A stretch of 64,000 nucleotides of DNA from Candidatus Poribacteria bacterium (GTDB lineage: Bacteria > Poribacteria > WGA-4E > WGA-3G): positions 4,902-68,901 of the forward strand of contig CBDHCS010000005.1 in assembly GCA_965261125.1 (NCBI GenBank), written 5' to 3'. The notes under the pieces are model-generated. The model saw nothing but the letters and a program-made list of their open reading frames with translations. It did no database searches and was not told where the DNA came from. Within the stretch, counting starts at the first letter, position 1; every line of letters begins with the position of its first letter. Shown in pieces: positions 3,352 to 32,955 of the stretch. The position numbers and the translations under genes were made by a program.

Positions 3352-3451
3352 TATCAATAGGGTTATTTAGTTTTCTGTCTTTCTTGCGAAGTTTATCACA
3401 AATGTTAATATTATGTAATATTCTGTAGGCCGGGTAGAGATCAGTGGAACC

Positions 3452-3761: not shown

Positions 3762-6068
3762 CTAACGAATCTGCCATAGCAGGATTGTGCCGTCGTAGCT
3801 GCCGCTGACAATAGTGTTTCCATCTGGAGAAAGAGCCACAGTGTGAACACCTTCCGTATGTCCTGTGAGTGTATTTTTGTGTTCTCCAGTATGTGCGTTC
3901 CACAATCGCACCGTCTTATCATGGCTGCCAGTAGCGATCGTCTTTCCATCCGGAAAAAATACTATGGAGAAAACTACTTCTGTATGCCCACTGAGTGTCG
4001 CTATATGTTTACCTGTGCTTGCGTCCCATAACTGCACTGGAGGATTGTCGCCGGTTTCTGTAGGGTCCAGGGTTGTAAGTTCGCCCGTATTTGCGCCCCT
4101 CAAGTGCTGTGGGGCGTTCTCGCCGTAAATTCCGGTAGCGAGAGTGTTTCCATCTGGAGAAAACGCTACAGACTTGACAGCCCCCTTATGTCGTAATGTG
4201 TTTTTGTGTTCTCCAGTCCGTGCGTTCCACAATCGCACTGTCTTGTCAGCACTTGCACTGGCGATAGTTTCTCCATCCGGAGAAAATGCCACGGAATAGA
4301 TCGGACCTGTATGTCCTTTGAAAGTTGATATGTTTTTTTCTGTTTGCGTATCCCACAAACGTACCGTGTTATCGAGGCTTCCTGAAACGATCGTGTTTCC
4401 GTCTGGAGAAAATGCCACGGAATAGATCCCTTCTGTATGTCCTTTGAAAGTTGATATGTTTTTTCCTATTTGTGCGTCCCACAATTGCACTGTATTGTCA
4501 AACTTTCCACCAGTAACTATCATATTCCCATCCGGAGAAAACATTACGGAATCAACATCACCCGTGTTCCGTCCTATGAGTGTATTTTTGTTTTTTCCTG
4601 TTCGTGTGTCCCACAACTGCACTGTTCCATCATGATGACCACTAACAATGGTTTTACCGTCCGGAGATAACACTATGGAAGTGATCGACCACGTATGTCC
4701 TGGGAGGGTGTTTTTGCGTTTTCCTGTTTGTGCGTCCCACAAATGTACTGTATTGTCCCAACTCCCCGTAGCGATAGTTTTTCCGTCCGGTGAAAACACT
4801 ACAGAAGTAACAGCACCTTTATGTCCTGAGAATGTGCTTTTGTGCTTTCCTGTTTGTGCGTCCCACAACCGGGCTCTACTCCAATGCCCAGTAACGATCG
4901 TCCCTCCATCCGGTGAATACACTACGGAGCGGGCACTATCTGTGAGTCCTTTTAGTGTATTTAGTCTACTTTTGTATTCTCCACTGTTTGTGTCCCACAA
5001 ACGTACCGTGTTATCTTTACTTGTAGTAACGATCGTCCTTCCATCCGGAGAAAATGCGATAGCACGGACACTGTCTGTATGCCCAGTAAGTGTATTTTTG
5101 TTCTTTCCTGCCTGAGTATCCCACAACCGCACTGTTTTGTCCTCACTCCCAATCGCAAGAATGTTTCCATTCGGGGAAAATGCTAAAGAAACGACATTAG
5201 GAGGAAATGCTGCAGAAGTGGCATAATCTGGTGGACCTCCTGTGGATACAGCCAAATCTGTACCTCCTGTGAATATAATTTTGTGTTCTCCTGTCTGAGT
5301 ATCCCACAACCGCACTGTGTTATCTCCACTACTCAGGGTAGCGATAGTAGCACTATTAGGGGAAAATGCTATAGAAGTAACAGACGATGTATGTCCTTCG
5401 AGTGTAGCTAAGTTTGTCCCTGTCCGTGTATCCCATAGCCGGACAGTTTTGTCATAACTTGCTGTAACAATCGTTCCTCCATCCGAAGAGAATGCGATGG
5501 CACAGACACTGTCCGTATGTCCAGTAAACAAGTCAATTTCTTTTTCTTTACCGGGACGCGCGTCATAAATCCAAATTCCGATGGAACTTGCAACGGCAAG
5601 CCGAGTACCATCCGGCGAGAAAGCGACATTTCCTGTTATATCACCTTTACCGAGGCGCGCTTTTGCACCTTCGGGCAGCGCCCATTGTGTATAGTCTACT
5701 GAGTCGGATAAACTCTGATTTGATTCCTGTCCCGTGCCATTACCTCTACCGGGAGTATCAGAATTATTTCCAACTATATTTCGAATATCCGGTTTTGCAT
5801 CAATCTCCTGGACTATAGGTGCATCAATAAGTTCTACTGCCATCTCAGACTGCATGTCCAAACTATAAGGTTGCTGGAAGCGCGCTAAATTCTTACTGCC
5901 CATGCCAAGTATGAACACAATCAAAATGGCACCAGATGCAGCCAACACCCACGGCATAAAAGGATTGCTTCCAGAAGGTGCAACAGGATTAAGATGTGCA
6001 ACTTCTCTCATTATGTTTTCAGTTAAGTTTGCGGATATTTGGAAATTGCTGAGTGCCTCTCTAATCAT
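3762..6068 (-). CDS. Membrane-anchored anti-sigma factor with a large periplasmic WD40 beta-propeller domain (about 14 WD repeats)
   Basis: 768 aa. The N-terminal cytoplasmic segment is followed by a TM helix (WVLAASGAILIVFILGM) and then repeated FSPDG...WD units. It lies 14 bp downstream of an ECF sigma gene, with an AAGGAGG RBS. Confidence 0.75.
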   Translation of the reverse strand: MIREALSNFQISANLTENIMREVAHLNPVAPSGSNPFMPWVLAASGAILIVFILGMGSKNLARFQQPYSLDMQSEMAVELIDAPIVQEIDAKPDIRNIVGNNSDTPGRGNGTGQESNQSLSDSVDYTQWALPEGAKARLGKGDITGNVAFSPDGTRLAVASSIGIWIYDARPGKEKEIDLFTGHTDSVCAIAFSSDGGTIVTASYDKTVRLWDTRTGTNLATLEGHTSSVTSIAFSPNSATIATLSSGDNTVRLWDTQTGEHKIIFTGGTDLAVSTGGPPDYATSAAFPPNVVSLAFSPNGNILAIGSEDKTVRLWDTQAGKNKNTLTGHTDSVRAIAFSPDGRTIVTTSKDNTVRLWDTNSGEYKSRLNTLKGLTDSARSVVYSPDGGTIVTGHWSRARLWDAQTGKHKSTFSGHKGAVTSVVFSPDGKTIATGSWDNTVHLWDAQTGKRKNTLPGHTWSITSIVLSPDGKTIVSGHHDGTVQLWDTRTGKNKNTLIGRNTGDVDSVMFSPDGNMIVTGGKFDNTVQLWDAQIGKNISTFKGHTEGIYSVAFSPDGNTIVSGSLDNTVRLWDTQTEKNISTFKGHTGPIYSVAFSPDGETIASASADKTVRLWNARTGEHKNTLRHKGAVKSVAFSPDGNTLATGIYGENAPQHLRGANTGELTTLDPTETGDNPPVQLWDASTGKHIATLSGHTEVVFSIVFFPDGKTIATGSHDKTVRLWNAHTGEHKNTLTGHTEGVHTVALSPDGNTIVSGSYDGTILLWQIR

Positions 6069-6082: not shown

Positions 6083-6628
6083 TTAGTCTTGCCTTGCACG
6101 GCTGAGCCTACTCTTAATCGCACTTGACGATACACCTAAAAATCTGCTAATCTCTTCACACGTCATGTTGCCGAAGTAGTGTAGGACCATTACCGTCCGC
6201 TCACTCTCTTTTAGTTTAGAGAGCAACTTTTTGACGACTTCGCGTTGTTCATCTACCGTAACTTTTGCTTGTTCTGTAGCGACATATTGGGAATATGTCG
6301 GTTCTTCTATTATCTCAGTATCTATGTCTTCAAGCGATTCTGTCTCCAGGTGTTTTTTACGGAGCCATGCAAGGCATTGGCGCGTTGCAATTACGTATAG
6401 CCATCCAGAAAACTGATTCGGGTTTTTCAAGGTTGCCAATTTTTGATAGACCTTGAGAAAAGTATCTTGCGTAATTTCTTCAGCGATGTGAAAATCGCCT
6501 ATTTTCCGCCAAGCGAGTGCATGCACCTGTTTTTGGTATTTTTCCACCAAACTGGCAAAGGCAGTATCATCACCTGCAAGGATACTATATATCAGTTCAG
6601 CATCGTTATTTTTCATCAGATACCTCAA
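6083..6628 (-). CDS. ECF-type RNA polymerase sigma factor (sigma-70 family, regions 2 and 4)
   Basis: 181 aa. Region-2-like (DDTAFASLVEKYQKQVHALAWRKIGD) and region-4 HTH (MTCEEISRFLGVSSSAIKSRLSRAR). Confidence 0.85.
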   Translation of the reverse strand: MRYLMKNNDAELIYSILAGDDTAFASLVEKYQKQVHALAWRKIGDFHIAEEITQDTFLKVYQKLATLKNPNQFSGWLYVIATRQCLAWLRKKHLETESLEDIDTEIIEEPTYSQYVATEQAKVTVDEQREVVKKLLSKLKESERTVMVLHYFGNMTCEEISRFLGVSSSAIKSRLSRARQD

Positions 6629-6875
6629 AAAAGTGATAAATTAATGTCCTCTATATATAGTGACGCGGGGAGAGGGCAAAACGGTCGCATAATTCTGAAA
6701 AAAACTGTGGTTCAAGCTGTTTTTTCATGGAATAGATAGATTTCACAGGGGAATTTATTTCACAAACTGGAAAATTTGAAAAGATGTTGAGCTGCTGATT
6801 ATCTCTATGGGGAGGTGTGGTTTCAGCGTGGGGAGACCTATTCAGAAGCAACTTTTTGTTTGATGTGGCACGCAA

Positions 6876-7076
6876 TTAACGTACCTTCCATAGCAGAATT
6901 GTACCATCATCACTACCGCTGGCAATCATGTTTCCATCTGGTGAAAACGCAACGGAAGTGAGGCTAAACGGATCCGCAGAGTGGGTATTAGTGTGTTCTT
7001 TTGTGCGGGTATCCATAGGCGTCAATTTAAGAAAAGTAAGAACGATTTTTTGAAAAAAGTTGTTAAATGAAAACAC
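6876..7076 (-). pseudogene. Orphan fragment of a WD40 gene (last blade only)
   Basis: VAFSPDGNMIASGSDDGTILLWKVR matches the C-terminus of the 3762..6068 protein (VALSPDGNTIVSGSYDGTILLWQIR). There is no upstream propeller. Confidence 0.4.
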
Positions 7077-7129
7077 CTTTTGTATAATATAGAAAAATAA
7101 CCTTTATATTGAACAGAGAGGTGTTTCCA

Positions 7130-7474
7130 ATGAATACATTATCACAAATTCCTGAAAAAATGCAACAGATTCTGACAATGACTGATGATGATGCAGCACG
7201 CAATACAGGTTTTGTCAAAAGAAACCGCAAACTGACAGGCAGTCAGTTCGTGCAAACACTTGTTTTCAGTTGGTTAGAAAACCCAGATGCCACCTATACG
7301 CAACTCACACACACGGCTGGTTCCCTCGGCACACCTATCACGCGTCAAGCGATTGAACAGCGATTTACACCCGAAGCCGCAGAGACCCTCAAAGCAACTT
7401 TTGATGCTGCTGCGGTTGAGGGTATTTCTGCTGATCCACAAACGCTCCCACTTCCGCACGGACAATCACAATAG
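7130..7474 (+). mobile_element. Truncated N-terminal fragment of an IS4-family transposase
   Basis: VKRNRKLTGSQFVQTLVFSWLENPD resembles the conserved N-terminal KRRRRLPA..VVW.VLG..F motif of IS4 transposases. The ORF stops after 115 aa and has no DDE domain. Confidence 0.4.
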
Positions 7475-7676
7475 GTTTTCGCAAGTCTATCATATACCTC
7501 CGAGAAGTTTTTGATAAAATAAAACGAGCCTTTCAAAACGGATGCTATATTGAGGGCGGGCTGATAGAAACACAACATTGGAACATCTTGAAAATGCTAT
7601 ACAAAATCATTAAATTGACGCCTATGGTGCGGTTTCCTAACCGCACTTATTAGGGTGTTCACATGTTTCAAATTTA

Positions 7677-7795
7677 CCGGACTTACGCATTCCCCCCGCT
7701 TGCGGGGTTAGGGGGGTAAAATAGGCAGAAATTGGAGTTTTTAACCCTCTAAAACCCTTATCAGGGGAACTTTTAAACACATTACGTAAGTCCTG
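7677..7795. repeat. MITE-like element, family A copy 2 (shorter variant)
   Basis: TIRs CCGGACTTACGCA / TACGTAAGTCCTG, with the CGCTTGCGGGG core. Confidence 0.7.
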
Positions 7796-7842
7796 TTTAC
7801 TATAAGTTTTATAATACCACATTTTACAAATAAGGAATTTTT

Positions 7843-8637
7843 ATGGACATCATTTGTGCTTCTATCTGCTACCGAGGCTATGCTGAAGACGAAGTCACCG
7901 CAACCTTGAAATACGCGCCAAAAATCGGCTACCGCGCTATGGAGATTCACGGACCGCTTATCTGGAGCGTTGATGCTGTCCACGCATTTGACGTGGATGG
8001 CATGAAAAAGGAAATTGAAAAATCTGGCATGAAGTGTGTCGGTCTCTATCCTCCCGGTTGGGGCGGTAACGATAATGCCGATGTGAAAACACGTGCCGAA
8101 GCAATAGCGAAATGTGTAAATATTGCCGAACAACTCGACGCTACACATTTGACAACCAGCGGTGCACAACGTAGAACTGAACCTGGTGCATTAGACAGAG
8201 TGATTGCTTGTGTTCGCGAGGTATTGGCACGAATACCAGCTGAAAGTCACATCAAATTGACACTTGAACCACACCACGGAAATGTGCTTGAGCAACCAGA
8301 AGATTTTCAACGAGTATTAGACTCTATTCCTGATGAACGAGTAGGTGTCTGTATAGATACCGGACATTTCCACACGTCCGGTGTAGATACGCTTGCTGCT
8401 ATTCGTCAGTTCGGTGCACGTATCTATGCGGTGCATCTCAAAGATCATATCGGTGCTGTATCTGTCGGCATCGGGCGCGGTGAACTCAACCTTCAAGAAA
8501 TTATAGCAACACTCCAAGACGCAGACTATCAAGGCGATCTCACACTTGAACTGGAGGTAGAAGACCCAGAAAACCTACCACGCTATACTGAAGAAGCGTA
8601 TTTCTACCTTAGCGGGATGTTAGGTTTGCGTCTATAA
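7843..8637 (+). CDS. Sugar phosphate isomerase/epimerase (xylose-isomerase-like TIM barrel)
   Basis: 264 aa. Family-typical length and E/H/D-containing segments; RBS AAGGA. Confidence 0.7.
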   Translation: MDIICASICYRGYAEDEVTATLKYAPKIGYRAMEIHGPLIWSVDAVHAFDVDGMKKEIEKSGMKCVGLYPPGWGGNDNADVKTRAEAIAKCVNIAEQLDATHLTTSGAQRRTEPGALDRVIACVREVLARIPAESHIKLTLEPHHGNVLEQPEDFQRVLDSIPDERVGVCIDTGHFHTSGVDTLAAIRQFGARIYAVHLKDHIGAVSVGIGRGELNLQEIIATLQDADYQGDLTLELEVEDPENLPRYTEEAYFYLSGMLGLRL

Positions 8638-8655: not shown

Positions 8656-9879
8656 CTACTGCTGCCAACTTTCAATGAAATCTGAAACGCTATAATTTGG
8701 CGGCATCTCATTGAAATAGTACCGCATCGGTCCTGATTGAAAACCTGGCAAAAAGTGTTCTTCGTCCGTTTTCAGGAGTGCATCAAGCGGTTTGAAACGT
8801 TCCCAAAGAACAACTGCTTCCTCCCGCGTGAAACGTTCCTCAGCGAAGGGCGGTCCCCAATTAAGCGTGATGGAATGAAATCCTTTTCCGCGGTTTCGCA
8901 GGTCATCGGGAATATCTTCAAGTTCACATCCATGTGTCAGTGCCACAAAACATGCAGCTTTACATAAAAAGACTGTAGATAACAATTTTCCTTTCTCACC
9001 TCTATCTGGGTGTAATTTTTCAAGTGCTATGTGATAAGCGGTGGCATTCTTTTGAATCACAGCTTGAAGTGCGTATTCGGTCCACATTTGCATCTGATGG
9101 CTCCGTTTTTCCCACCGATCAAACATCTCTTGCACACGGGGTGAGAGATAATCCATATAATTTAGATTTGGATAGTGAGTAAAATTTGAAAACCCACCAT
9201 GTATTGTGCGGCGCATCTTCTGGCTGTAGTTGCTTCCCCAATGCAAGATTGGCAAAATATAGACCACACCATCACCTGCATTGAGATGTGTTTGCACTCC
9301 ATCTGGCAAAGGTACTCGCGGATCCGTCAACAATTGTTGGTTTTCCTCATCTGTGTTCACTCGTAGGTGGCTACCAGGGATAACCCATAAAACACTATCA
9401 TCGTAGAGTGAAAGATTCCACTGTACGTAGCGCGGTCCCGTTTCCAAAATATCATCAAGATAACCTTGTAGGGGTGCCGTATCAATCGGGTGATGATCGC
9501 GATGCCAAGCAGCAGGTCCTCGGTCACTCACTGGATTACACATAAGCATCATTTCGGTAACACCAGCATCCTCCACACCGAGCAGCTCACTACTAACGCC
9601 TTGCATGTTCTCGTGTGCCCAAATTTCAATGGCACTCGCTGTTTTTTTGTCTACAAGACCAGCGAGCGGTTCGCGTCCGAGAATTAAACGGGGTTGCGCC
9701 GAAGCCTCCCACACGCCTCCCGGTGGGTCATGTGGCTGCCGTTCCTTCACCCATATATCGAGCTGCCGTGATACCATCAGTTCATAACTTTTCCGAAGTT
9801 CATCCAGTTCATCTGGAGGAATTACTTCTCGCAGGACGAGATACCCTTCTTCGATGAATTGAATCCGATTTACTTTCAT
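8656..9879 (-). CDS. Putative Fe(II)/2-oxoglutarate oxygenase, PhyH-like
   Basis: 407 aa. HxD motif (WHRDHH) and a later His. Assignment is tentative. Confidence 0.4.
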   Translation of the reverse strand: MKVNRIQFIEEGYLVLREVIPPDELDELRKSYELMVSRQLDIWVKERQPHDPPGGVWEASAQPRLILGREPLAGLVDKKTASAIEIWAHENMQGVSSELLGVEDAGVTEMMLMCNPVSDRGPAAWHRDHHPIDTAPLQGYLDDILETGPRYVQWNLSLYDDSVLWVIPGSHLRVNTDEENQQLLTDPRVPLPDGVQTHLNAGDGVVYILPILHWGSNYSQKMRRTIHGGFSNFTHYPNLNYMDYLSPRVQEMFDRWEKRSHQMQMWTEYALQAVIQKNATAYHIALEKLHPDRGEKGKLLSTVFLCKAACFVALTHGCELEDIPDDLRNRGKGFHSITLNWGPPFAEERFTREEAVVLWERFKPLDALLKTDEEHFLPGFQSGPMRYYFNEMPPNYSVSDFIESWQQ

Positions 9880-9939
9880 AGGTTCTTTCCTAATGTGCGT
9901 TGCCCAGCGCGTTAACTAAGTCTCTTTAGTTGCTAAACG

Positions 9940-10671
9940 TTACCCACGTCCAACATAGAGTTGTCCAACGGGTAACACCGTTGCCTCTAACATATTGATA
10001 TTAGGTGGCAGCGTTGCCATGAGGACAGCAGCTTTAGCAAGTTCGTCAACATCCATCATCGGCTCAGACGGAGGAAATGGATGGTTCTGAATTCGTTCAA
10101 CATAAGTATTGCCGGGTTGCAAGCAGCTCGCCGTAATACCGTGGGCTCTACCTTCCAATGCTATTACCTGCGTCAATCCCCATATCCCGAATTTACTTGC
10201 ACTATAAGGCGCGCTACGTGGACGCACACGGTGTGCAGAGATACTACCGATATTGATAATACGTCCGCCTTCACCTTGTGCTTTCATAATCCGTATCGCT
10301 TCACGCGAGCAGAGAAACGGTGCACGGAGATTCACACCTATCACCTTATCCCATGCTTCCGTTGAAAGTTCGTCAATCGGACCGCCATCAAACGAACCAG
10401 CATTGTTAACAAGGATGTCTAAGCGTTCATATTCAGCCATCGCTTTTTCAAAGAGGACCTTAATTTGTTCCTCATCAGTAACATCAGTCGAGACAGCAAG
10501 AACTTTAACATTCATTTCGCGTAGTTCATTAGCAGTTTGCGAAAGCTGTTCAGCATTCCTTGCGGCAATAGTCAGACTTGCGCCTTCCGCAGCAAACCCT
10601 TTCGCTATGCCTTTCCCAATTCCTCTATTGCCCCCAGTAACAATTGCAACCTTTCCTTCTAATTGACCCAT
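9940..10671 (-). CDS. SDR-family short-chain dehydrogenase/reductase
   Basis: TGGNRGIGKGIA cofactor motif and YSASK catalytic motif. Its start overlaps the stop of the upstream gene (TAATG). Confidence 0.85.
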   Translation of the reverse strand: MGQLEGKVAIVTGGNRGIGKGIAKGFAAEGASLTIAARNAEQLSQTANELREMNVKVLAVSTDVTDEEQIKVLFEKAMAEYERLDILVNNAGSFDGGPIDELSTEAWDKVIGVNLRAPFLCSREAIRIMKAQGEGGRIINIGSISAHRVRPRSAPYSASKFGIWGLTQVIALEGRAHGITASCLQPGNTYVERIQNHPFPPSEPMMDVDELAKAAVLMATLPPNINMLEATVLPVGQLYVGRG

Positions 10672-11391: not shown

Positions 11392-11859
11392 CTCTCGTTT
11401 TAATAAACTTAAACAAGTTCACGCACCTCCAATTTATCAGATAACCGGGCAAAACGTCAACATAGAGTTGGATGTGTAAAGTTTTGGTTATATAATCTAA
11501 GTTGCCACATAGTAGCACAATTTGTTAGATTGTGTCTGTAAGGGCACAAACTAACAGATTGTGGGACAACTACTGTTATCCGCTATATTTCCGAAACAAG
11601 TTTATGAAAATGACCAATAACCTGAAAGTTCGCTGTATTAGGATAGGATACCATTTTTTATTATTCCCCCGCAACATCTCTGAACATCAGTGTTTCTACA
11701 AAAACTTTACACACTCCCTCTCAGGGTTATTTATAGTAAAGCCCATAATTATTTGGACACTTTTGTCCTTGTCCGCTCTCCCCCCGCTTGCGGGGGGTTG
11801 GGGGGCGGGATAAAGGAATATTTTCGTGTGTCCACTTAATTGTCGATTCTACTATAATG

Positions 11860-12250
11860 GGACACTTCTGTATCGCACCCTGTATGAAGATTAATTTATT
11901 AATTCGGTAATTTTCTATCCGTACGAGGCAAGTGTACTCCCCCGCTGGCGAGGCGGGGAATGCCTAAAGACGAATGCGCCTATGGCATTCGCCATGATTC
12001 ATACCCGGGGAATGCCAAAAGGCATTCATACCGTTGATTTCTTGATTTCTTCCTAACCTCGCCCAATTACCGAAATATTTTCTTAATCTTCATTTAGGTT
12101 GCGGACTCAGATGCACAACCTAAATGAAGATTAAGTTTTTAATTGGGTAATTATAATTTACTCCAAACCCCGGTAGGTGCGGTTTCCTAACCAATATATC
12201 TCCACGAATTACCTAATTTATTTTTTTATCTTCATATAGGTTGTGCTACA
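11860..12250. repeat. Composite family-D MITE (about 250 bp, long TIRs of the form TATGAAGATTAAtttattAATTCGGTAATT ... AATTACCGAAATATTttCTTAATCTTCATtTAGGTTG) plus extra solo TIR copies
   Basis: Internal GGAATGCC..GGCATTCC palindromes. The same architecture recurs at 24444, 37389, 43018 and 49570. Confidence 0.7.
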
Positions 12251-13023: not shown

Positions 13024-13166
13024 CTTACTGGTTTACTCGCTAAACATTTATTATATACAAACTTACGTAATAGGTTCAAAAGCCTTCTCCCCTCGCTTGC
13101 GGGGGGATAAAGGGGGGTGTATTTACGGAATTCGAAACACAAAAACTTACCGAGTGAACCACTTAC
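13024..13166. repeat. MITE-like element, family B copy 1 (TIRs TAAGTGGTTnACTCG / CGAGTnAACCACTTA; shares the GCGGGGGGATAAAGGGGGG core with family A)
   Basis: Also present at 22588, 26218 and 26421. Confidence 0.7.
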
Positions 13167-15565: not shown

Positions 15566-17059
15566 ATGGCAGAAACGAATGAACGTGTTGACGGCGGCAC
15601 ACTTCCCGATTGGGAAGTCGCTGAATTACCAGCACCGCCACGATATAAATTTGGTAGAGCGTTTAGAAGTATCTTAGGACCAGGAATCATAGCACTTGGT
15701 GCTTCAATCGGCAGTGGGGAGTGGTTACTGGGGCCTAAAATTACGGCACAATATGGTGGCACGCTACTCTGGATTGCGACTATAGCAATCGTACTTCAAG
15801 CAGTTCTAAACACGGAAGCAATCCGTTACACCCTTTACACCGGCGAACCGATGCTTAGTGGATATATGCGTAGTAAACCGGGACCACGGTTCTGGGCTAT
15901 TTTCTATTCAAGTATAGATTTTTTCGCCATTTGGCCTGGATGGGCGATGGCAGCTGCGACCGCGCTTGCTGCTGCATGGCTGGGGTTTATGCCCACAGAT
16001 GCTGAGCAGAACACTGTTCGCATCTTTGCATATCTCATCTTTTTCGGTTGTCTTGCCATTGTCATGTTTGGTGGAAAAATTTACAACGCACTTGAAAAAG
16101 TGTTACTCTTCATGGTTGTTTGGATTATAGGATATTTGGTAATCGTAGACGTGTTTATGGTACCGCTAAATGTGTGGTGGGCCGTCATAAAAGGTTTCTT
16201 TAGTTTTGGTGTATTGCCACCAGATGTACGTTCAGAAGACTTTGATTGGTTGTTACTCGGTGCGTTTGCTGCTTATGCAGGAAGTGGGGGTTTAGGCAAT
16301 ATCACGATTTCTAATTACGTCCGCGATAAAGGATGGGGCATGAGTAGCCTGGTGGGGGCAATTCCATCTATCATCGGCGGAAAAAACGTCAAGCTATCTC
16401 ACCTGGGGAAAGTGTTTCGCATCAGTCCTGAAAACCTTGAACGTTTTCGTGAATGGTGGAAATATGTCCGATTTGAACAGTACTATATCTGGGTGATCGG
16501 TTGTTTTATCGGTTTAGCACTTCCTGCAATGTTAACATTGGCTTATCCACCTGAAGAAATAATGAATGATTGGTCTGCTGCAGCATACCAAGCAGATGGC
16601 CTTGCAGCTAAAGGTGGTAGAATCATGTGGTACCTCACACTGTTATGTGGGTTTTGGGTGCTTTTCTCAACACAACTCGGCAGTGTGGACGGCGTTCCAC
16701 GACGGTTTACAGATATTATTTGGACAGGTTTCAAAAGCGCCCGAAAAATGGGTGACCACAACGCAAAATGGATATACTATCCGATTCTCATCGTCTATAT
16801 CCTGTGGGGTGTTATTGCAATGTATTTGGCAAAACCGTTACTAATGATAATAGTATCCGCAACGGTGGGCGGTTATCAACTTGTGATTTGTGCACTTCAC
16901 ACATTATATGTTAACCGAAAATTCTTGCCGAAAGAGATACAACCCCCGATATGGAAACAGATAGGTCTGCTGTTGTGTGCGGGGTTCTATTCTATTTTCG
17001 GAACAATTACGGTTTACCAAAAAGTACTTGAGCCTTATATTTTACCGATTTTTCAGTAA
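15566..17059 (+). CDS. mntH: Nramp-family divalent metal (Mn2+/Fe2+) transporter
   Basis: 497 aa polytopic membrane protein with the N-terminal Nramp signature region (GPGIIALGASIGSGEW). Confidence 0.75.
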   Translation: MAETNERVDGGTLPDWEVAELPAPPRYKFGRAFRSILGPGIIALGASIGSGEWLLGPKITAQYGGTLLWIATIAIVLQAVLNTEAIRYTLYTGEPMLSGYMRSKPGPRFWAIFYSSIDFFAIWPGWAMAAATALAAAWLGFMPTDAEQNTVRIFAYLIFFGCLAIVMFGGKIYNALEKVLLFMVVWIIGYLVIVDVFMVPLNVWWAVIKGFFSFGVLPPDVRSEDFDWLLLGAFAAYAGSGGLGNITISNYVRDKGWGMSSLVGAIPSIIGGKNVKLSHLGKVFRISPENLERFREWWKYVRFEQYYIWVIGCFIGLALPAMLTLAYPPEEIMNDWSAAAYQADGLAAKGGRIMWYLTLLCGFWVLFSTQLGSVDGVPRRFTDIIWTGFKSARKMGDHNAKWIYYPILIVYILWGVIAMYLAKPLLMIIVSATVGGYQLVICALHTLYVNRKFLPKEIQPPIWKQIGLLLCAGFYSIFGTITVYQKVLEPYILPIFQ

Positions 17060-17149: not shown

Positions 17150-17309
17150 CAGGACTTACGCATTCCCCACGCTTGCTATTCTTAGCCCCTCGCTTGCGGG
17201 GGGTTGGGGGGATAAAGGGGGTAAAACCTTGAAAAGGACAAAAATCAGGGTTAAAATCCGTGAAAGGACAAAATTCTAAACAGGGATACTTGAATTTGCG
17301 TAAGTCCTG
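17150..17309. repeat. MITE-like element, family A copy 3 (carries a 21-bp internal duplication CGCTTGCTATTCTTAGCCCCT)
   Basis: TIRs CAGGACTTACGCA / TGCGTAAGTCCTG. Confidence 0.8.
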
Positions 17310-17345
17310 ACATCAATTTAAGAAATTATTGAAAGGAGAACAGTA

Positions 17346-18659
17346 TTGAAACAAAAGATTATTAGGGCATTTCTATCGTTGTTAACACTTCCGATTGTTG
17401 TTGTGATGAGCATTACCTTTATGATGATTGTTGGTTGCGATGAAGGAATGAATATGATTGATCCGGTGATAACAGAGCCGGGAGAGGAACCAATGACGCC
17501 TGACGGTCCGATAACGACTAATGGCGATATGAAACAACCGCCGGAAGAAATTCCTGGCGACAACAAAAATCTCGGATCAGAACAGCCGGAACTAACACCG
17601 GAACCGGATCCCGAGAAACCAGAGACATCGGAACCAACGTCAACCGTGACAATTACCGCGGTGACGCAGGCGAGTGACACATCAGTCACCGTCTCCGGTA
17701 CGAGCACCAATATCCCCGAAAGGGCGAAAGTAACTATCGTGCTGGGCGATGGCGCCATCACCGTGAAGGCAGTCGTTACTAAAGACGGCACCTGGACAAC
17801 AACCGTGCCTGCTAAAAAGACAGCACGGCTCAGCCCGGGAACCATAATGGTGAAAGCAACCGCGAAAAAGGTAACAGCCAAAAGCTCGTTTGAGATTGCG
17901 CCGCCGCCAGAACCGACACTGACGATTGACACCGTGGTACAAGCAGACGATGGCTCAGTCACCGTCTCTGGTACGAGCACTGAGATGCCTACAGGAGAAA
18001 CAGTAACCGTCACGTTCGCCGGTACTCTCATCGTGACAGCCACTGTTGACAACACCGGTGCCTGGACAGCGATGCTCGCCGGCACGAAAGCGGCGAATCT
18101 CGTCGTAGGGACTGTAGGGGTGAAAGCCGCCGCAGGCGCAGCAACGGCAGCAAGCTCATTTGAGAACAACCCGCCTGATCTGGCACACGGCATTCCTGTT
18201 TCTACGGATGTGGAACGCATCAAGATAAACATCGTTGCTGATGTCTACGGAGCGGATGATCCGCATTTCCAAGAGACATATCAACGACTTGATGCAGAAT
18301 ACGGCTCATTCTTTGATTTGGAGACCGAAGAAGGACAGGCGTATTTTCGCAAATTTGTTGTGTACAGATACAAAAACATAGGACTTGGAAACAGGGTTCC
18401 TGACGCTGATGAAAGGTGGGCATTGCGAGACCAATACTTTGAGGAGGCCTATGGCTTCTCTGCTGATTTCGCAAGGTGGTTGGTCTTTGAAATCTACCTC
18501 AAAGAAACCGGAGAGAAAATCACCGGGCTTTGGCAGAAAAACGGTATTGCCATGGAATACCTGCTACTCCAGATAGCCAATCCGGATGCGACCGAGGAAG
18601 AACTTTTGGAACTCCTGCGAGAATCCATTAGGGCGGGAAATGTGAGTATTGCTTTCTAA
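17346..18659 (+). CDS. Lipoprotein with two tandem Ig-like repeats of about 85 aa and a C-terminal domain of unknown function
   Basis: TTG start with an AAAGGAG RBS. Signal peptide with lipobox MMIVGC. Two near-identical modules (TVSGTST...TVKA...TAKSSFE), roughly 17640..18165. Confidence 0.6.
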   Translation: MKQKIIRAFLSLLTLPIVVVMSITFMMIVGCDEGMNMIDPVITEPGEEPMTPDGPITTNGDMKQPPEEIPGDNKNLGSEQPELTPEPDPEKPETSEPTSTVTITAVTQASDTSVTVSGTSTNIPERAKVTIVLGDGAITVKAVVTKDGTWTTTVPAKKTARLSPGTIMVKATAKKVTAKSSFEIAPPPEPTLTIDTVVQADDGSVTVSGTSTEMPTGETVTVTFAGTLIVTATVDNTGAWTAMLAGTKAANLVVGTVGVKAAAGAATAASSFENNPPDLAHGIPVSTDVERIKINIVADVYGADDPHFQETYQRLDAEYGSFFDLETEEGQAYFRKFVVYRYKNIGLGNRVPDADERWALRDQYFEEAYGFSADFARWLVFEIYLKETGEKITGLWQKNGIAMEYLLLQIANPDATEEELLELLRESIRAGNVSIAF

Positions 18660-18681
18660 ATTATTCTTCAACTATACATAG

Positions 18682-18714
18682 CGACCTACAAAATTGTAGG
18701 TCGTTATTTCTTTT
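18682..18714 (+). terminator. Rho-independent terminator between convergent genes
   Basis: Hairpin CGACCTACA-aaat-TGTAGGTCG followed by TTATTTCTTTT. Confidence 0.6.
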
Positions 18715-18753: not shown

Positions 18754-20037
18754 TTACTTGCAGATACCGCCGGCTTTGAAATCACATTCCTGAGGATAAG
18801 TGCAATGATTGTCATGGTAGCATTCTACACAAAAGCCAAATGCACAAGTTGGTGTAGAACCAGAGCAATCAGAATTAGATGAACACTCGGTAAAACAATG
18901 GGTTCCAAAAAGATTGTCTGCGCTGCACGACATTCCTGAACCGCAAGATTCTTGTACTTCCGCTTGACAACTGGAAGAAACATCCACTACAGCAGTATTA
19001 TCACTATTACATATAACCCCTGAATTACAACAATATGGTTTGTCATTGGTACTATCATCCGCACCGCCAAAAGCACCATCACAAGTCCAGGAAACATCAT
19101 CGTCGTATTGGTCGGTGGTATAACAAGTGGCAGCACTGTTAGTACCCTCGTCGCAGCCGCTTGCCTGCACTGTCCTGTCAGCACTGCCGACCGTCACCGT
19201 CCCAGAGCCGCTTGCGGTATCCGATCCGCAAATTTTGTTGTCAAGCTCACAAGTTACACCAACTGAACCACTATGGTAGTCTGAATCCAAACTTGTGGGT
19301 CTGTAGTAATAATAATCTGTTTCACCTGAAGCGTTTGTAGCAGTGTACCGGTAAGAGCAGAAATGGTAACAACCAAGGAAAGTGGCGTTAGCACAAATAC
19401 AGCTGGAAGAAAATGAAGTACACTCCTCATAAACGTCAGATTGAGTCGCTTGGGCATAATCAACACACCAAAATCCTCCACCGCAGTCTGCGCCTGTTGA
19501 GCAGGAATTCCCAAAACTAAAACTGTAGTAACCTATGCTCTGTGGTGCCGCATTGCCACACTTTCGATTAGCAGGAGGAACCACACAAGAGCCGTTAGCA
19601 TCAACACCAACAATCTTAGCACCTTCTTGATAATCGTAATAACTACTCATGCTCACCATGGTACCGGAACTGTTTTTATAGAAATAACTTATTACAGGAG
19701 ATGAATAATCATCACACCAAGAAGAATAATCATCATCAACAATGTTTGTCCCTGCGGTTGTGGCGAGACAAGACACACAAGAATTACTACTCTGCGACCA
19801 AGAGCCATTACTGCAGGTGTAAGAGCAGGAACCGGTATAGCCGGTGGCACAAGTGCCGCTCGAAGAGCCGCTTGCGGTGGCAGCGAGGGAACAGTTTGAA
19901 ATTGTTTGCGCAGTGCAGGAGGAAGGGGTGGGGGTGGGGGTGGGGGTGGGAGTAGAAGGTGCAGCAGGCGTACAGGTCACACTACTGTCTATTTTTTCAT
20001 CAGAAGTGTCCAAAAAATAGGCAATTTCACCAAACAA
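18754..20037 (-). CDS. Cysteine-rich (about 15% Cys), Ser/Gly/Tyr/Asp-rich protein with a (PT)5 linker. No recognisable signal peptide
   Basis: 427 aa ORF from a TTG start. There is no in-frame ATG or hydrophobic leader upstream before a stop. Knottin/EGF-like Cys spacing appears at the C-terminus (CSSNSDCSGSTPTCAFGFCVECYHDNHC). Confidence 0.55.
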   Translation of the reverse strand: MFGEIAYFLDTSDEKIDSSVTCTPAAPSTPTPTPTPTPSSCTAQTISNCSLAATASGSSSGTCATGYTGSCSYTCSNGSWSQSSNSCVSCLATTAGTNIVDDDYSSWCDDYSSPVISYFYKNSSGTMVSMSSYYDYQEGAKIVGVDANGSCVVPPANRKCGNAAPQSIGYYSFSFGNSCSTGADCGGGFWCVDYAQATQSDVYEECTSFSSSCICANATFLGCYHFCSYRYTATNASGETDYYYYRPTSLDSDYHSGSVGVTCELDNKICGSDTASGSGTVTVGSADRTVQASGCDEGTNSAATCYTTDQYDDDVSWTCDGAFGGADDSTNDKPYCCNSGVICNSDNTAVVDVSSSCQAEVQESCGSGMSCSADNLFGTHCFTECSSNSDCSGSTPTCAFGFCVECYHDNHCTYPQECDFKAGGICK

Positions 20038-20230
20038 ACCGCCAAAAACAACCCTTTTCCGTTGGCATAAAAATTGCTTAACGTTAGATATGCCTCCTTA
20101 GGTGAGTCGGAACTACAATCTCTGCAAAGCAAAATTGCATGCGTTAGGTTAAGATCCCTGATATTTCTCAACCATTTAGAGATAGAGTTTCCGACTCTTT
20201 TTTATCCCCAAACAGACATCCTATATTCAA

Positions 20231-20354
20231 CAGGACGGACGCATTCCCCTCGCTTGCTATTCTTAGCCCCTCGCTTGCGGGGGGTTGGGGGGTCGGGATA
20301 AAGGAGGGTGTATTAGAGTATTCAAAACACAAAAACGGACCGAGTAAACCACTA
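20231..20354. repeat. Chimeric A/B-family element (A-type 5' TIR CAGGACGGACGCA, B-type 3' end CGAGTAAACCACTA) that abuts the thrC stop codon
   Basis: The last 3 nt of the element (cta) form the thrC TAG stop on the minus strand. Confidence 0.65.
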
Positions 20355-22545: not shown

Positions 22546-22587
22546 TTGTGGATTTTACTATAAGGTTTACCGATCGTCTTGGACCTC

Positions 22588-22755
22588 TTTAGTGGTTCAC
22601 TCGCTAAATATTTATTGTCCATAGAACTTACGGCATAGATCTAAAAGTCCCTTCCCCTTGCCATCGCATGCGCGTGTGGCATGCGAATTGGGGGGATAAA
22701 GGGGGGTGTATTTTCGGATTTCAAAACACAAATACTTACCGAATGAACCATTTAG
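22588..22755. repeat. MITE-like element, family B copy 2
   Basis: TIRs TTAGTGGTTCACTCG / CGAATGAACCATTTAG. Confidence 0.65.
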
Positions 22756-26136: not shown

Positions 26137-26550
26137 TTAGTGGTTCACTCGCTAAACATTTATTATATAACCTAAGTTGCCACCTTCTTTGTAGCATAAT
26201 CTGTTAGATTGTGCATCTTAAGTGGTTTACTCGCTAAACATTTGTTACATATAGAGTTTACGGCATAGATCCAAAAATCCCCTCCCCTCGCTTGCGGGGG
26301 GATAAAGGGGGGTGTATTTAGGACGTTCAAAACACAAAAACGGACCGAGTCAACCACTTAGCGCAAGCATCGCTAAAGGATAACGTCTTTATGTAGCATA
26401 ATCTGTTAGATTGTGCATCTTAAGTGGTTGACTCGCTAAACATTTATTATGGACAAAACTTACGGCATAGATCCAAAAATCCCCTCCCCTCGCTTGCGGG
26501 GGATAAAGGGGGGTGTATTTAGGACGTTCAAAACACAAAAACTTATTAGC
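26137..26550. repeat. Cluster of family-B MITEs (one solo TIR at 26137, full copies at 26218..26346 and 26421..26548) interleaved with the GTAGCATAATCTGTTAGATTGTGC motif
   Basis: Two full copies in tandem within 400 bp; near-identical internal sequence. Confidence 0.7.
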
Positions 26551-28288: not shown

Positions 28289-28452
28289 TAGGACTTACGC
28301 ATTCCCCTCGCTTGCTATTCTTAGCCCCTCGCTTGCGGGGGGTTGGGGGGGGATAAAGGGGGGTAAAGCCTTGAAAATGACAAAAATCAGGGTTAAAATC
28401 CGTGAAGGGACAAAATTCTAAACAGGGATACTTGATTTTGTGTCCGTCCTGA
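28289..28452. repeat. MITE-like element, family A copy 5
   Basis: TIRs TAGGACTTACGCA / TGTGTCCGTCCTG. Carries the same 21-bp internal duplication as copy 3. Confidence 0.75.
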
Positions 28453-28457
28453 CGGTA

Positions 28458-29483: not shown

Positions 29484-31616
29484 TTACCTGAGGATACTAA
29501 ATTTGCCAATTTGTCGGACAACCGAATCTGCTTGCGTTGCAGCGATGTGGTAAATGTAGATACCCGAAGCGAGCGGCACGCCACGAAGGTTTGAACCGTC
29601 CCACTGAAATTTTCCAGGGGCAAGGACATTCTGATGTGTTTTGTTATAGACCTTCTCCCCTTTAATAGTAAAAATTTCAAGGGACACAGTGTCTGCGGAC
29701 TGGGAGGCAGAGAGTTGATACGCAAACGTCATTCCCGATGCTGATGGACGAAAAGGGTTCGGGTAAACACGGATCTGTGCAAGCGCGAAAGATTCGGGTT
29801 CTATCTGTTCGATTAACAACTTGTATGACGCAACACTGCTGAATCTACCGTCGGATGTTACCACAAGATATAACGTCTGTTGAGCAGAAGGTTGGTAAAG
29901 AATTTGGTAGCCGAGTAGATCAGGTGCTTTTTCGCCTATTGCTAACGTCTCTCCTGTCATCGTCAAGAGCGATAAACGGTAATCCAGATTTGCTGGAAAA
30001 TCTGATAGTGTTGCGCGGACTGTTACACCGCCAGCAGCTTCAATTCTATAAGAATCCTGGGTATCCGAAGCGTCGTATAGAAAAGAGTAATAGGGTTGGG
30101 CATAAAAGATTGGGAATGCCGTTCCTATAGTATCATTCGGTTCATAAGTATCACCAAACGAAACGAGCATCTTCATGACTGGGCCTTCAGGGCCAATGTT
30201 AGTTATAGATATACCGGTTGGCGTTCCATCGTTTGCACTACTGTTCGGCAAAGTGCCTGGCGTAAAGGCAGTTTGGTTATCATCTGCAGAGTAGGCTGCG
30301 CCTTCCGTGATGGTTTTGATGTTTATGATGTTCGGATCATCGGGATGAATGCCGAAATGTTCAGGATCATTAGGGTCTTCAAGCCAAATCTGTTGTGCGG
30401 CATCATAACTACGAAGGTCACGCACCTGTGTCTCATCAATGTGCCAAATGAGGATGCCGGATTCAGGCAGATAGGTATCAAAGGTAGCACCGGAGGCTTT
30501 ATATCGGTTTTCTATGAGAAAAAATTCTCTGTTAGTGGTAGCAAGTGCATCCCGGCCCTGTGGAATATCGATTTTAAAAAGTTTATCTGTTTTGGGTGGC
30601 AGTTCGAAAGCTGGAACAGATATCTGGCCACTTTGAGTGATGTTAACAGGCTTAATCCAACCAACGCGACCATTTTCTGGGCGGGCATCAAAATCCCATT
30701 TCAGGTACCCCATGATATGGCTGGGTGCTAATCCGTCCCCTAAACTAAAAACTTCTCGACCTTGATATGGACCGAATGCTCCCATCAATCCCCATTTATG
30801 ATCGCGAGCATCTGTGTAGGTAAACGCGTAGACATCTGGCGCGCCGAAGTCGTGGAAGAATTCGTGAAAGTAGATGCCTAAATGAGGTTTTTCAAAATCT
30901 GGTTCTTCGGCGACAACAACGGCAGTATCAACTCGAACACCGTCTACGATAACGTTGACATCTGGCGTTAAGATTGACCAGATATCATTAACTGCCTTAA
31001 CCGGGTCTATTGCACTGTAGGATGCTTCGTCATTCCCCGCATGAATGAGAAATAGGTGGTCAACGACTCCGTCTTTATCACGATCGTACTTTGAAAAATC
31101 GACGGTTGCATCTACAGCATGGCACGCTTCGGCGATTAGTTCTCGATAACGTTGTACTGGTCCTGGACCTTCAATTTCTCCATAATAACGCATCGGTTTC
31201 TTTGCGCGAATCCATTCGTTGCCTGCGGGCAGAACACCTCCAGCGGGTCCTGGCTGCACATCCATCTGGCCGTAAGAATTTTCGCGAAAGTAGGTTTTTA
31301 GGGAAACACCGGTTTCTGCAAATAGATATTCATTGAATTCAGCGCTGGTTCTTTTGCCCGGTTGATCGCTGAAATCAATTTTCAGGGCGAGGACATATTC
31401 AATACCGTCCGGTTGTAGTACGCTCTGTTCTCTGGCGAAGCAACAGCCATCCAACGCTTGTAAATATTTTGAGACACTGAGTTCAGAATTCTGCCCGGCG
31501 GAAGGTTTCGGCTTCATTTCACCGGTAACCGGATCTATGTCAAAATAGAGATACGGATTAGGCGGAGCAGCAAGACTAAATGTTGTAGCCGTGAGGAGGT
31601 ATCCCACGCAGAGCAT
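29484..31616 (-). CDS. Secreted M6-like (immune-inhibitor-A-type) zinc metalloprotease with a C-terminal beta-sandwich sorting-type domain
   Basis: HEFFHDFGAPDVY zinc-binding motif. Probable signal peptide MLCVGYLLTATTFSLAAP (start 31616; the ORF is open to 31850). The C-terminal about 90 aa resembles T9SS/Por-type secretion domains. Confidence 0.55.
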   Translation of the reverse strand: MLCVGYLLTATTFSLAAPPNPYLYFDIDPVTGEMKPKPSAGQNSELSVSKYLQALDGCCFAREQSVLQPDGIEYVLALKIDFSDQPGKRTSAEFNEYLFAETGVSLKTYFRENSYGQMDVQPGPAGGVLPAGNEWIRAKKPMRYYGEIEGPGPVQRYRELIAEACHAVDATVDFSKYDRDKDGVVDHLFLIHAGNDEASYSAIDPVKAVNDIWSILTPDVNVIVDGVRVDTAVVVAEEPDFEKPHLGIYFHEFFHDFGAPDVYAFTYTDARDHKWGLMGAFGPYQGREVFSLGDGLAPSHIMGYLKWDFDARPENGRVGWIKPVNITQSGQISVPAFELPPKTDKLFKIDIPQGRDALATTNREFFLIENRYKASGATFDTYLPESGILIWHIDETQVRDLRSYDAAQQIWLEDPNDPEHFGIHPDDPNIINIKTITEGAAYSADDNQTAFTPGTLPNSSANDGTPTGISITNIGPEGPVMKMLVSFGDTYEPNDTIGTAFPIFYAQPYYSFLYDASDTQDSYRIEAAGGVTVRATLSDFPANLDYRLSLLTMTGETLAIGEKAPDLLGYQILYQPSAQQTLYLVVTSDGRFSSVASYKLLIEQIEPESFALAQIRVYPNPFRPSASGMTFAYQLSASQSADTVSLEIFTIKGEKVYNKTHQNVLAPGKFQWDGSNLRGVPLASGIYIYHIAATQADSVVRQIGKFSILR

Positions 31617-31635
31617 TATGAATGCAAAAGATCTG

Positions 31636-32955
31636 TTAATCAAATTCACCACCACATTTTCTGCACAAAATGTAGAACTGGATGTCATCAGAATGGGCGT
31701 GTTGTTTAATAAGATCCACTGCTTGGTCCGGCAAATCTGCTTCACATTTTTGGCATTTATAGAGCGAACCTTCGGGTTCAGGAAATTTTCTGATATCGCC
31801 CCAGATGTCATGAAGCCAGTATTTAAATTCCCATGGAAACTCGGTCTCAACAGCTTTAGATATTTCTACTGCATGACGAATTAATTTTTGGCAATCTTCA
31901 AAGGTTGCAGGTTCATACGGGTGAGGTTCTGTGTGGAGGGGAATCGGTTTGCCTTCGGATGCGGTTTCTGGGTTAAACCTGCGCGAACGTGTCAGCAAGA
32001 TTTGGTCTAACCGTGTGCCTGGTTCTCTCCCTTTTGACCAGACGCGGTAATAACCTCGTCTTTTGACGTTAAAATAACCAGGGGTTGACTTCCCCAGTGG
32101 GTGTGTTGAAGTATCCCATAGCCAACGGTTCCATTTGGAATCGTCGCCAGGAACTGCCCAAATTTTGATTGCATTCGGCCCACCTTGTTCATCCCAAGGA
32201 TAAGGTTCTACATCTTCAATGCCGACCCAGTAAGAGTCTTGGCTGCCCGATTTATAATAGGTGCGAATCCATACGTACCACTTACCAGTTTTTGGGATGT
32301 AAACTTCATAAATACTGCGAGCCCCTCTGGCACTGTCGATGGCTTTGCCGTTAGAGGCTTCTGCCTCATCTACAATTTTTACACCGTTATCAAAATGTAT
32401 TGCAGTTTCTGCTTCAATAATAAGCGTATTTCTTGGAACACGGATCAATTCCTGTCTTGTATTTTTCTCTTCTCGCTCAGTTTCTTCTTTTTCTTCTTCT
32501 TCTGGCAGTGCTTGTTCTGGTTCAGTATAACTATTTCCGAACCGTTGACATGCGCGTTCAAACTGTTTTTCGGAAAGGTTTGCATCGTAAAAGCAATCCC
32601 GGACTCCTTTCTTCCAGAGGTCCAGAAGCAGAAACATAGCTTTTAGATTCCCATCAGGTCGTTTACGGGTGCCGACAACAATCAGCATACCGGTATCTCG
32701 TGAACGACTGACAAGACACAGATGGAGTGGATATTCAGGTGGTGCAACTTTTCGGCTTTTTACGATAAGCGGACTATAATATTTACAGCGATGGTCACAT
32801 CCGGGTATTTTTGCCCGTTTAGCACTACAACATTCTGGGCAAATGATCATGCTGCTGAGAGCAGGACATGTACGCTTACCATTACCGGAACGGCATGTAC
32901 GGCATCTGTGTTGTTTGGTACGTTTTTGTCTGGTAGAAAATCTCTGATGGCGCAT
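31636..32955 (-). CDS. Hypothetical protein with Cys clusters at both termini (zinc-ribbon-like) and an acidic linker
   Basis: 439 aa. N-terminal CRTC...CPEC...CDHRC and C-terminal CQKC...CRKCGGEFD. No family recognised. Confidence 0.45.
   Translation of the reverse strand: MRHQRFSTRQKRTKQHRCRTCRSGNGKRTCPALSSMIICPECCSAKRAKIPGCDHRCKYYSPLIVKSRKVAPPEYPLHLCLVSRSRDTGMLIVVGTRKRPDGNLKAMFLLLDLWKKGVRDCFYDANLSEKQFERACQRFGNSYTEPEQALPEEEEKEETEREEKNTRQELIRVPRNTLIIEAETAIHFDNGVKIVDEAEASNGKAIDSARGARSIYEVYIPKTGKWYVWIRTYYKSGSQDSYWVGIEDVEPYPWDEQGGPNAIKIWAVPGDDSKWNRWLWDTSTHPLGKSTPGYFNVKRRGYYRVWSKGREPGTRLDQILLTRSRRFNPETASEGKPIPLHTEPHPYEPATFEDCQKLIRHAVEISKAVETEFPWEFKYWLHDIWGDIRKFPEPEGSLYKCQKCEADLPDQAVDLIKQHAHSDDIQFYILCRKCGGEFD

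Follow-up and report, generated by a model that had tools for sequence, protein, structure and literature searches.

How does a gene for a cysteine-rich protein come to stand in a bacterial genome without any leader for export? This question is raised by a 64,000-nt stretch of DNA from Candidatus Poribacteria (assembly GCA_965261125.1, contig CBDHCS010000005.1, positions 4,902 to 68,901; hereafter the window), whose minus strand carries at 18754..20037 an open reading frame (ORF) of 427 codons plus a stop, with TTG as its first codon. Poribacteria are uncultivated sponge symbionts. An earlier note on this locus had offered non-classical export, an intracellular metal- or redox-binding role and a faulty 5' end as explanations, and comparison with relatives favours the last of these, as a genomic truncation and not as a demonstrated mis-assembly. 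We consider it somewhat better than an even bet that a gene for a secreted disulfide-rich protein has lost its signal peptide and N-terminal domains here and that the ORF is its 3' portion. The earlier observation as a whole was partly confirmed.

Homology begins inside a block conserved in the relatives of the ORF

The ORF is a genuine coding sequence with native codons. Its codon usage lies about 1 standard deviation under the window mean and inside the window's range, its G+C content at third codon positions is 0.38 (window, 0.39), and the opposite strand holds no ORF longer than 84 aa. The product contains 39 cysteines (9.1%), about nine times the 1.0% found in the 35 other genes of the window; the figure of about 60 given in the earlier note was an overcount, while its description of a composition rich in Ser, Gly, Tyr and Asp agreed with the residue counts (S 70, T 44, G 39, A 34, D 34, Y 27). 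Aromatic residues are frequent (27 Tyr, 15 Phe and 4 Trp), and only one CC and one CxC occur.

Homology to the relatives P0018, P0001, P0049 and P0003, as determined by tblastn, begins at nt 19983-19986, that is, at aa 18-19. In P0001, P0018 and P0049 an FN3-like region is followed by a conserved block, GSCxxW..S..VTCTP, and alignment with these homologs showed that the window ORF keeps only its end, SVTCTP (19969..19986, minus strand). The cysteine of the GSC motif is gone and C22 is orphaned, since the two cysteines of the block would be expected to pair as a disulfide. The first 17 codons (MFGEIAYFLDTSDEKID; 19987..20037, minus strand) match none of the relatives and run across a T-rich terminator-like hairpin (20043..20020); they are probably former non-coding sequence that is now read in frame. 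The 38 upstream codons resembled the corresponding region of the homologs no better than shuffled sequences did (p = 0.35-0.86), and remnants of the missing N-terminal domains were found neither upstream of the ORF nor elsewhere in the window. As the distance from the ORF to the thrC stop is only 314 bp, 122 bp of which belong to a repeat element, the missing part is not recoverable by correcting an insertion or deletion. Because thrC follows directly on the repeat element, we rejected the idea that insertion of a miniature inverted-repeat transposable element (MITE) had split the gene; an invertible 5' segment was also rejected, for want of suitable inverted repeats.

The sequence before and around the start is equally poor in signals. 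Upstream in-frame sequence (GGISNVKQFLCQRKRVVFGG) meets a TAA at 20098-20100 after 21 codons and contains no hydrophobic segment, as the earlier note had stated along with the missing N-terminal leader. Its statement that TTG is the only start did not hold, as a TTG at codon 9 and a GTG at codon 20 are also in frame, and the public annotation of the contig, recovered by exact-sequence look-up, takes the GTG at 19980 as the start of a 408-aa product that is leaderless as well. By inspection and a simple hydrophobicity rule, no hydrophobic stretch was found after starts at codons 1, 9 or 20 or in frame upstream, and the ORF does not show the basic n-region, the h-region of 7-15 aa and the cleavage site or lipobox of a Sec signal peptide. 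No Shine-Dalgarno sequence was found at 4-10 nt from any of the three candidate starts, whereas many genes of the window have one; the gene of the neighbouring lipoprotein, for example, has AAGGAG at 7 nt. The unique 192-nt spacer upstream of the ORF (20038..20229, minus strand) contains a TAAGGAGG at 20093-20100 that is an orphan, as no start codon is suitably spaced from it. A sigma-70-like promoter upstream of the ORF was likewise not found.

Thus, the homolog-defined N-terminus is absent within the contig and translation signals are missing, as in a 5'-truncated pseudogene, and the signal peptide, N-terminal Cys-rich domains and FN3-like region of the full-length family architecture are lacking. 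The remainder shows no decay in the form of stops, frameshifts or loss of conserved residues: 427 codons are open, and 24 of the 25 invariant positions are kept.

An undescribed family of probably secreted cysteine-rich proteins

A HMMER scan against 1.84 billion representatives gave 197 matches in all, and those listed mostly cover only aa ~35-95, a six-cysteine domain that we call module A. Among the matches listed, nine cover the rest of the ORF (P0010, P0018, P0024, P0029, P0035, P0037, P0049, P0053 and P0069). P0018 matches aa 18-410 in HMMER and has a tblastn E value of 8e-51, with values down to 1e-51 in the core family; P0001 (E = 2e-40) and P0003 (E = 2e-26) join the family by tblastn. 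The core family then comprises about 12 relatives among the representatives, with 30-40% identity in the core. Of the relatives listed, the majority of which match module A only, about half have N-terminal hydrophobic leaders or prepilin motifs. A profile search of a 90%-clustered database returned P0069 only; scans of genome contigs gave one weak module A match in Patescibacteria, and scans of metagenome and viral contigs gave nothing. So far, the family has been seen only in Candidatus Poribacteria and related metagenomic contigs. A literature search on cysteine-rich proteins of Poribacteria found nothing specific to it, and judging from the database comparisons it appears to be undescribed, with three sequence modules that have no Pfam, NCBIfam or PDB entry. 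Homology to a known secreted lectin or adhesin family had been named in the earlier note as a result that would speak against it; an adhesin-like secreted family was indeed found, but not a known one.

The longest members show what the window copy lacks. P0049 begins with a classical signal peptide (MGKKMTLFFPLVLLLLVGLLAGMVFAKD), followed by small Cys-rich domains and the FN3-like region, which is also present in P0018 and P0001. At the P0003 locus (L002), the same signal peptide and first domain as in P0049 lie upstream in another frame. The window copy shares with this unnamed family the core, module A, the C-terminal CxxC knots and a convergent lipoprotein neighbour, but is without signal peptide, N-terminal Cys domains and FN3-like region. 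The signal-peptide region of the P0003 gene (L002, ~9600-9700) consists in part of a (CT)n repeat (LSLSLSLSLSL), a tract of the slipped-strand type in an error-prone assembly. The loci L002, L004 and L011 come from one such long-read assembly, where dnaE is broken into 5 ORFs, and we discounted frameshifts in these loci as evidence, including the one between the signal peptide and P0003.

Within the window ORF, the retained end of the conserved block is followed by a (TP)5 linker at aa 29-38 (19924..19953, minus strand; TPTPTPTPTP), the PT-repeat linker of the earlier note, and by module A at aa 41-87 (19777..19917, minus strand), a six-cysteine domain of ~48 aa delimited by database matches and alignment. 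Its pattern, C..T.I..C.L.....G.SSG.C..GY.GSCSY.C.NG.W....N.C, is widespread, and secreted and prepilin-type proteins carry it in tandem arrays. These proteins have signal peptides, prepilin N-methylation motifs (N_methyl) or InlB B-repeats, a context that reads as extracellular. Module A is not in Pfam. Its profile found only non-significant CCP-like matches in PDB (E 0.5-1.7), and its second half (C..GY.G.C...C..G.W....C) is weakly similar to CCP and adhesion-GPCR (G-protein-coupled receptor) motifs. It is 85% identical to P0001, beside a strongly diverged core (whole match ~31%). Between the window and L009, the proportions of nonsynonymous (pN) and synonymous (pS) differences over aa 18-90, which include module A, were 0.22 and 0.73. 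Recent gene conversion as the cause of the conservation of module A was rejected, as there is no DNA match to L009 and synonymous sites are saturated.

The core domain, likewise placed by database matches and alignment, occupies aa ~100-345 (~250 aa; 19003..19740, minus strand) and opens with WC(D/N)DYS..YFY, which takes the form WC[DN]DYS..Y[FY]Y across the family. Its best-conserved part is aa 223-345, with the pattern ..TCE.N.CG...V.VG..DR...DGC..GTN....Y....W.C.G..GG.D....PY.C..G..C. Of the 25 alignment columns in which the other 9 members do not vary, the window core matches 24. It has no Pfam match, and its profile finds nothing in PDB.

The C-terminal Cys knots (aa 357-426; 18760..18969, minus strand) include two CxxC-x5-C-x6-C-x4-7-C units. 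The knottin- or EGF-like cysteine spacing that had been proposed for the C-terminus is echoed by a Pfam match to the knottin family Toxin_23 (PF08093) at aa 382-404, which is marginal (23.5 bits against a gathering threshold of 22.2), covers one 23-residue stretch and comes from the Cys spacing; in P0018, the equivalent repeat type elsewhere gives an EB-module match. Searches with the ORF against Pfam, NCBIfam, PADLOC and PHROGs, and against PDB by sequence and by profile, returned nothing beyond the Toxin_23 score and a meaningless PADLOC match. The remote-homology search and structure prediction suggested in the earlier note for the internal Cys modules and the C-terminus gave no convincing PDB match: the AlphaFold2 model, built on a 12-sequence alignment, was poor (mean pLDDT 49.8), beta-hairpins at pLDDT 70-83 were confined to the C-terminal knot region, and Foldseek found no match for this low-confidence model in PDB.

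A convergent lipoprotein accompanies the cysteine-rich gene

The gene that converges on the ORF lies at 17346..18659 on the plus strand and encodes, as the earlier note had claimed, a lipoprotein with Ig-like repeats. Its signal peptide ends in a lipobox (..MIVGC; GCDEGMNM) and is followed by a disordered Pro/Glu linker with an invariant NGxxKQP, two Ig domains of the Ca-tandemer/BIg type and a 7-helix C-terminal head. AlphaFold2 modelled this protein with confidence (pLDDT 86.5), and the 7-helix head found no convincing structural match. A 13-bp hairpin between the two genes (18678..18707) is likely to be a bidirectional terminator.

The same lipoprotein family was found immediately downstream of the Cys-rich gene, and convergent with it, at all nine readable loci (the window, L002, L003, L004, L005, L006, L009, L011 and L012). 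Identity to the window protein was 42-59% in L003, L005, L006, L009 and L012 (E 1e-48 to 1e-157), with L009 at 59%; the L011 protein, and less clearly the L004 protein, resembles it chiefly in the C-terminal head, and the L002 protein only in the N-terminal leader and linker. At L006, a copy of the partner stands on both sides of the Cys-rich gene (6524-7588 and 9320-10315; 80% identical to each other). The lipoprotein family has at least 55 close members, and the closest ortholog of the window protein (70% identity, L014) has no Cys-rich neighbour, so the dependence of the pairing is one-way. The lipoprotein genes of the window and L009 share 74% DNA identity over their best 680-nt segment, whereas the Cys-rich genes give no blastn match, which indicates that the Cys-rich partner evolves much faster.

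Other members of the lipoprotein family combine the same lipobox, linker and Ig repeats with different heads. A head swap is visible between P0199 and P0205 on a 601,180-bp contig, a length also noted for the contig of P0001: P0205 carries CarboxypepD_reg and an HExxH motif (ISHELAHAHQH), and the head of P0199 is like that of the L002 neighbour. The stalk of the partner lipoprotein resembles adhesin repeats, namely the Ca2+-stabilised BIg tandem repeats of the RTX adhesins LapA and MpIBP; it differs from these in having only 1-2 repeats, and the protein is lipobox-anchored with an unrelated 7-helix head instead of being exported by type I secretion.

Leaders are also missing at other loci

At least three relatives in other assemblies are also without a leader, and P0001 is leaderless too. 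In L009, a metagenome-assembled genome (MAG) from NCBI, an uninterrupted frame of 659 codons still covers the first domain of P0049, but nothing is left of the signal-peptide region, where MGDVDFCDV* is followed by a C run with a frameshift. The P0018 ORF of L003 begins at a GTG within a Cys-knot array, with GGGAGG just before it, right after a TGA where P0049 has Cys. We considered reading this TGA as selenocysteine but abandoned the idea, because another 24 codons upstream the frame is closed again by a TAG, and the site borders on a hairpin element. The ORFs of L006 (P0053) and L011 (P0024) begin just before the core, with stops upstream, and the P0053/L006 sequence is identical in three assemblies.

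Truncation points therefore vary by locus, and no alternative N-terminus is common to the leaderless forms, which points to repeated loss rather than to a designed leaderless form. We gave little weight to hydrophobic stretches in alternative frames, because the +1 frame of coding DNA rich in Ser, Cys, Asp, Asn and Tyr is intrinsically hydrophobic, as seen in L006. In the same locus, a ~70-nt motif (GGCA.AAT.CGCGTTTGGTATTCTG.AT...ATCAAGATGGAT) is duplicated in tandem at 7760-8000 within the upstream region of 412 nt, and just downstream there is a type I-D CRISPR-Cas cluster (Csc1, Csc2, Cas3-like).

A probable 5'-truncated gene and its alternatives

A loss of the 5' end would account for these features as follows. 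The intact gene would have encoded a signal peptide, small N-terminal Cys-rich domains, the FN3-like region, optional six-cysteine modules, the ~250-aa core and the CxxC knots. A deletion or rearrangement may then have taken everything before the last residues of the post-FN3 block and brought what was left up against the 3' flank of thrC, as a remnant made of the linker, one module A, the core and the knots, without a signal peptide, a spaced ribosome-binding site or a recognisable promoter. Because these three elements are missing, the product is probably not exported, and the ORF is probably poorly expressed or silent. The truncation would thus have inactivated the gene, and the ORF may be a young remnant in which stops have not yet accumulated and which is probably decaying. 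The intact protein may work outside the cell, in adhesion or host interaction, and may do so together with the neighbouring lipoprotein. Loss at other loci supports truncation: L014 lacks the gene, L009 lacks the signal-peptide region, and the ORFs of L003, L006 and L011 start in domains or at their edges.

Several points weigh against a simple truncation. The remaining 410 codons are wholly intact, and 24 of 25 family-invariant positions are kept, as many as in other members, which gives no hint that constraint has been relaxed. Leaderless forms recur (P0053 in three assemblies; P0018 with its GGGAGG), and recurrent loss of the 5' end only, with the rest kept, is unlike simple neutral decay. 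The ORF is co-directional with scpA-scpB-thrC, which makes read-through transcription possible. The sequences are too diverged (pS ~0.7) to gauge selection since the truncation: with synonymous sites saturated, dN/dS is uninformative on this point and shows only long-term purifying selection, strongest around module A (pN 0.22, aa 18-90). The truncation event itself is deduced from comparison with homologs.

The same intactness could mean that the ORF encodes a functional leaderless protein, translated from TTG or GTG, maybe after read-through from thrC, and either cytoplasmic or exported non-classically, perhaps via the lipoprotein neighbour. Beside the open frame, the conserved invariant positions and the native codon usage, this would fit the leaderless state of P0053/L006 (three assemblies), P0018/L003, P0024/L011 and P0001 and the retention of the gene pair at nine of nine loci. 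However, the breakpoint lies inside a conserved block and not at a domain boundary, truncation points differ by locus, relatives with signal peptides exist, and neither a Shine-Dalgarno sequence nor a promoter was found; module A has an extracellular context, and the partner gene is convergent and not co-transcribed. Disulfide-type cysteines are implausible candidates for folding in the reducing cytoplasm, and the ORF has at least 38 of them. Overall, we regard a functional leaderless protein as unlikely, although it is the alternative that we take most seriously. An intracellular metal or redox role agrees poorly with the 27 Tyr and 15 Phe, the extracellular-type domains, the disulfide-like Cys spacing and the length of 427 aa; metallothionein-like proteins are small, with dense CxC, CC and CxxC clusters and few aromatics, whereas the ORF is aromatic-rich with one CC and one CxC.

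Alternatively, a leader and N-terminal segment may have been lost or collapsed during assembly of the MAG near the repeat element. The contig is known from one assembly, 190 nt separate the ORF from the repeat element upstream, and at least one homopolymer frameshift occurs in the window (an extra C interrupts GPPGTGKT in ftsH), but other 7-nt homopolymers in coding regions are in frame, and the breakpoint (~19986) is ~240 nt from the repeat edge and not at it. A full-length gene would need at least 0.4 kb of extra DNA, which is not an indel, and like truncations are present in independent assemblies of other genomes; an assembly artefact is therefore improbable. More improbable still is a silent or switchable cassette, in which leaderless copies are stored and then activated or donated by recombination with an expression site. 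Several intact ORFs that lack the 5' end only, the high conservation of module A (85% to P0001) beside the diverged core and the (CT)n tract in the L002 signal-peptide region would suit it. Set against these are the absence from the window of a second family copy, a recombinase or an inverted repeat flanking the 5' end, the location of every copy at its own locus with its own lipoprotein gene, and the error-prone L002 assembly, while purifying selection explains the conservation of module A, given the pS of 0.73 over aa 18-90 and the lack of a blastn match to L009.

A frameshift could also hide a signal anchor. An A6 run followed by TAG in the +1 frame (19992..19997, minus strand) is noted here as a caveat and not as a demonstrated feature: an extra A, arising from a sequencing error, phase variation or a -1 slip at AAA AAA TAG, would fuse the +1-frame peptide ..GLFLAVCLVKLPIFWTLLMKK to IDSSVTCTP. 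The hydrophobic stretch ends 3 codons before the start of homology, a run of lysine codons followed by a stop is a classic slippery context, and the window does hold a homopolymer frameshift in ftsH. The peptide, however, has no basic n-region or cleavage site, carries a Lys in its middle and is followed by KK, all unfavourable for export; its only start with SD-like spacing is TTG, T-rich terminator-like DNA yields hydrophobic codons by chance, and no relative has a counterpart. We place this explanation last, as a slender chance. Cutting across these alternatives is a broader idea, a long shot in our estimate although less so than an assembly artefact: the Cys-rich gene and the convergent stalked lipoprotein would form a two-gene module for surface or host interaction, whose Cys-rich partner is recurrently switched off, diversified or redeployed through changes at its 5' end alone, the leaderless copies then being not decaying genes but either stored cassettes or a functional class exported with the help of the partner and outside the Sec pathway.

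Comparison with known systems

Toxin_23 (the Magi-5 knottins of spiders), the EB module and Sushi/CCP-like domains share a similar Cys spacing with the ORF or with P0018, but their scores are marginal or non-significant, with no structural match for the ORF, and Magi-5 toxins are 30 aa long whereas the ORF encodes a 427-aa bacterial multidomain protein. The favoured 5'-truncated gene resembles the truncated pseudogenes of PGAP annotation ('incomplete; missing N-terminus') in its mid-contig N-terminal loss and its lack of a ribosome-binding site. It is unlike them in having 410 codons free of frameshifts and stops and in being annotated publicly as a 408-aa protein. Neisseria pilS, Mycoplasma pulmonis vsa and Campylobacter fetus sap are silent partial surface-protein cassettes. 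The ORF is like them as an intact segment of a surface protein without promoter or leader, but an expression site, recombinase, recombination site and cassette array were not seen in the 64 kb of the window.

The leaderless ORF on its own is probably ordinary, a gene minus its 5' end, but the family behind it is not, and this undescribed family with its invariable lipoprotein neighbour is the part that deserves follow-up. Extracellular eukaryote-like proteins of Poribacteria are leading candidates for recognition by the host, and the conserved gene pair gives a concrete, testable handle through mutual binding, localisation and host targets. Selection against display of the protein, or a switching mechanism, could lie behind the repeated loss, in several genomes, of nothing but the 5' end.

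Other features of the window

One G+C-rich intergenic repeat copy, at 20230..20351, separates the thrC stop from the spacer that precedes the ORF, and a related copy at 17150-17311 lies upstream of the lipoprotein gene. The flanking MITEs of the earlier note are therefore present as repeats, but they are not specific to the gene pair, as the families occur in at least nine intergenic regions. The G+C-rich family (core CCCCTCGCTTGCGGGGGG..ATAAAGGGGGG) recurs at 3218-3353, 7676-7755, 11774-11817, 13083-13165, 22560-22754, 26190-26542 and 28290-28453. An A+T-rich family (..CAACCTAAATGAAGATTAAG.. / ..ACAGGTTGCGGTACAGAAGTGTCCC..) is found at 11854-12152, 24463, 37387-37593, 43022-43299, 49570-49837 and 63601. 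Both families recur in the related Poribacteria MAG loci L003, L006 and L009.

The ftsH gene (44543-46454, minus strand) is split in two ORFs at a C7 run (45773-45779) within the Walker A motif, which reads VGPPRYG* and with one C fewer becomes GPPGTGKT; the split is either an assembly indel or a real pseudogene. Directly upstream of the lipoprotein gene lies a 497-aa multi-pass membrane protein (15566-17059, plus strand) with no Pfam match. The window further encodes a sigma-54 activator, HAMP/HisKA kinases, an M6 (immune inhibitor A) peptidase with a FlgD_ig/CHU_C type-IX-like C-terminal domain (29484-31850, minus strand), a 471-aa beta/gamma-crystallin-domain protein (35781-37196, minus strand) and a 781-aa flotillin/SPFH-domain protein (33395-35740, minus strand) whose gene contains three tandem 264-nt repeats at 34053-34837 that are 70-81% identical. 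Two long genes (3762-6068, minus strand, and 61024-63417, plus strand) consist of 126-nt periodic units with a recurring GTGGGATG (..WD..) and are WD40-like by periodicity only.

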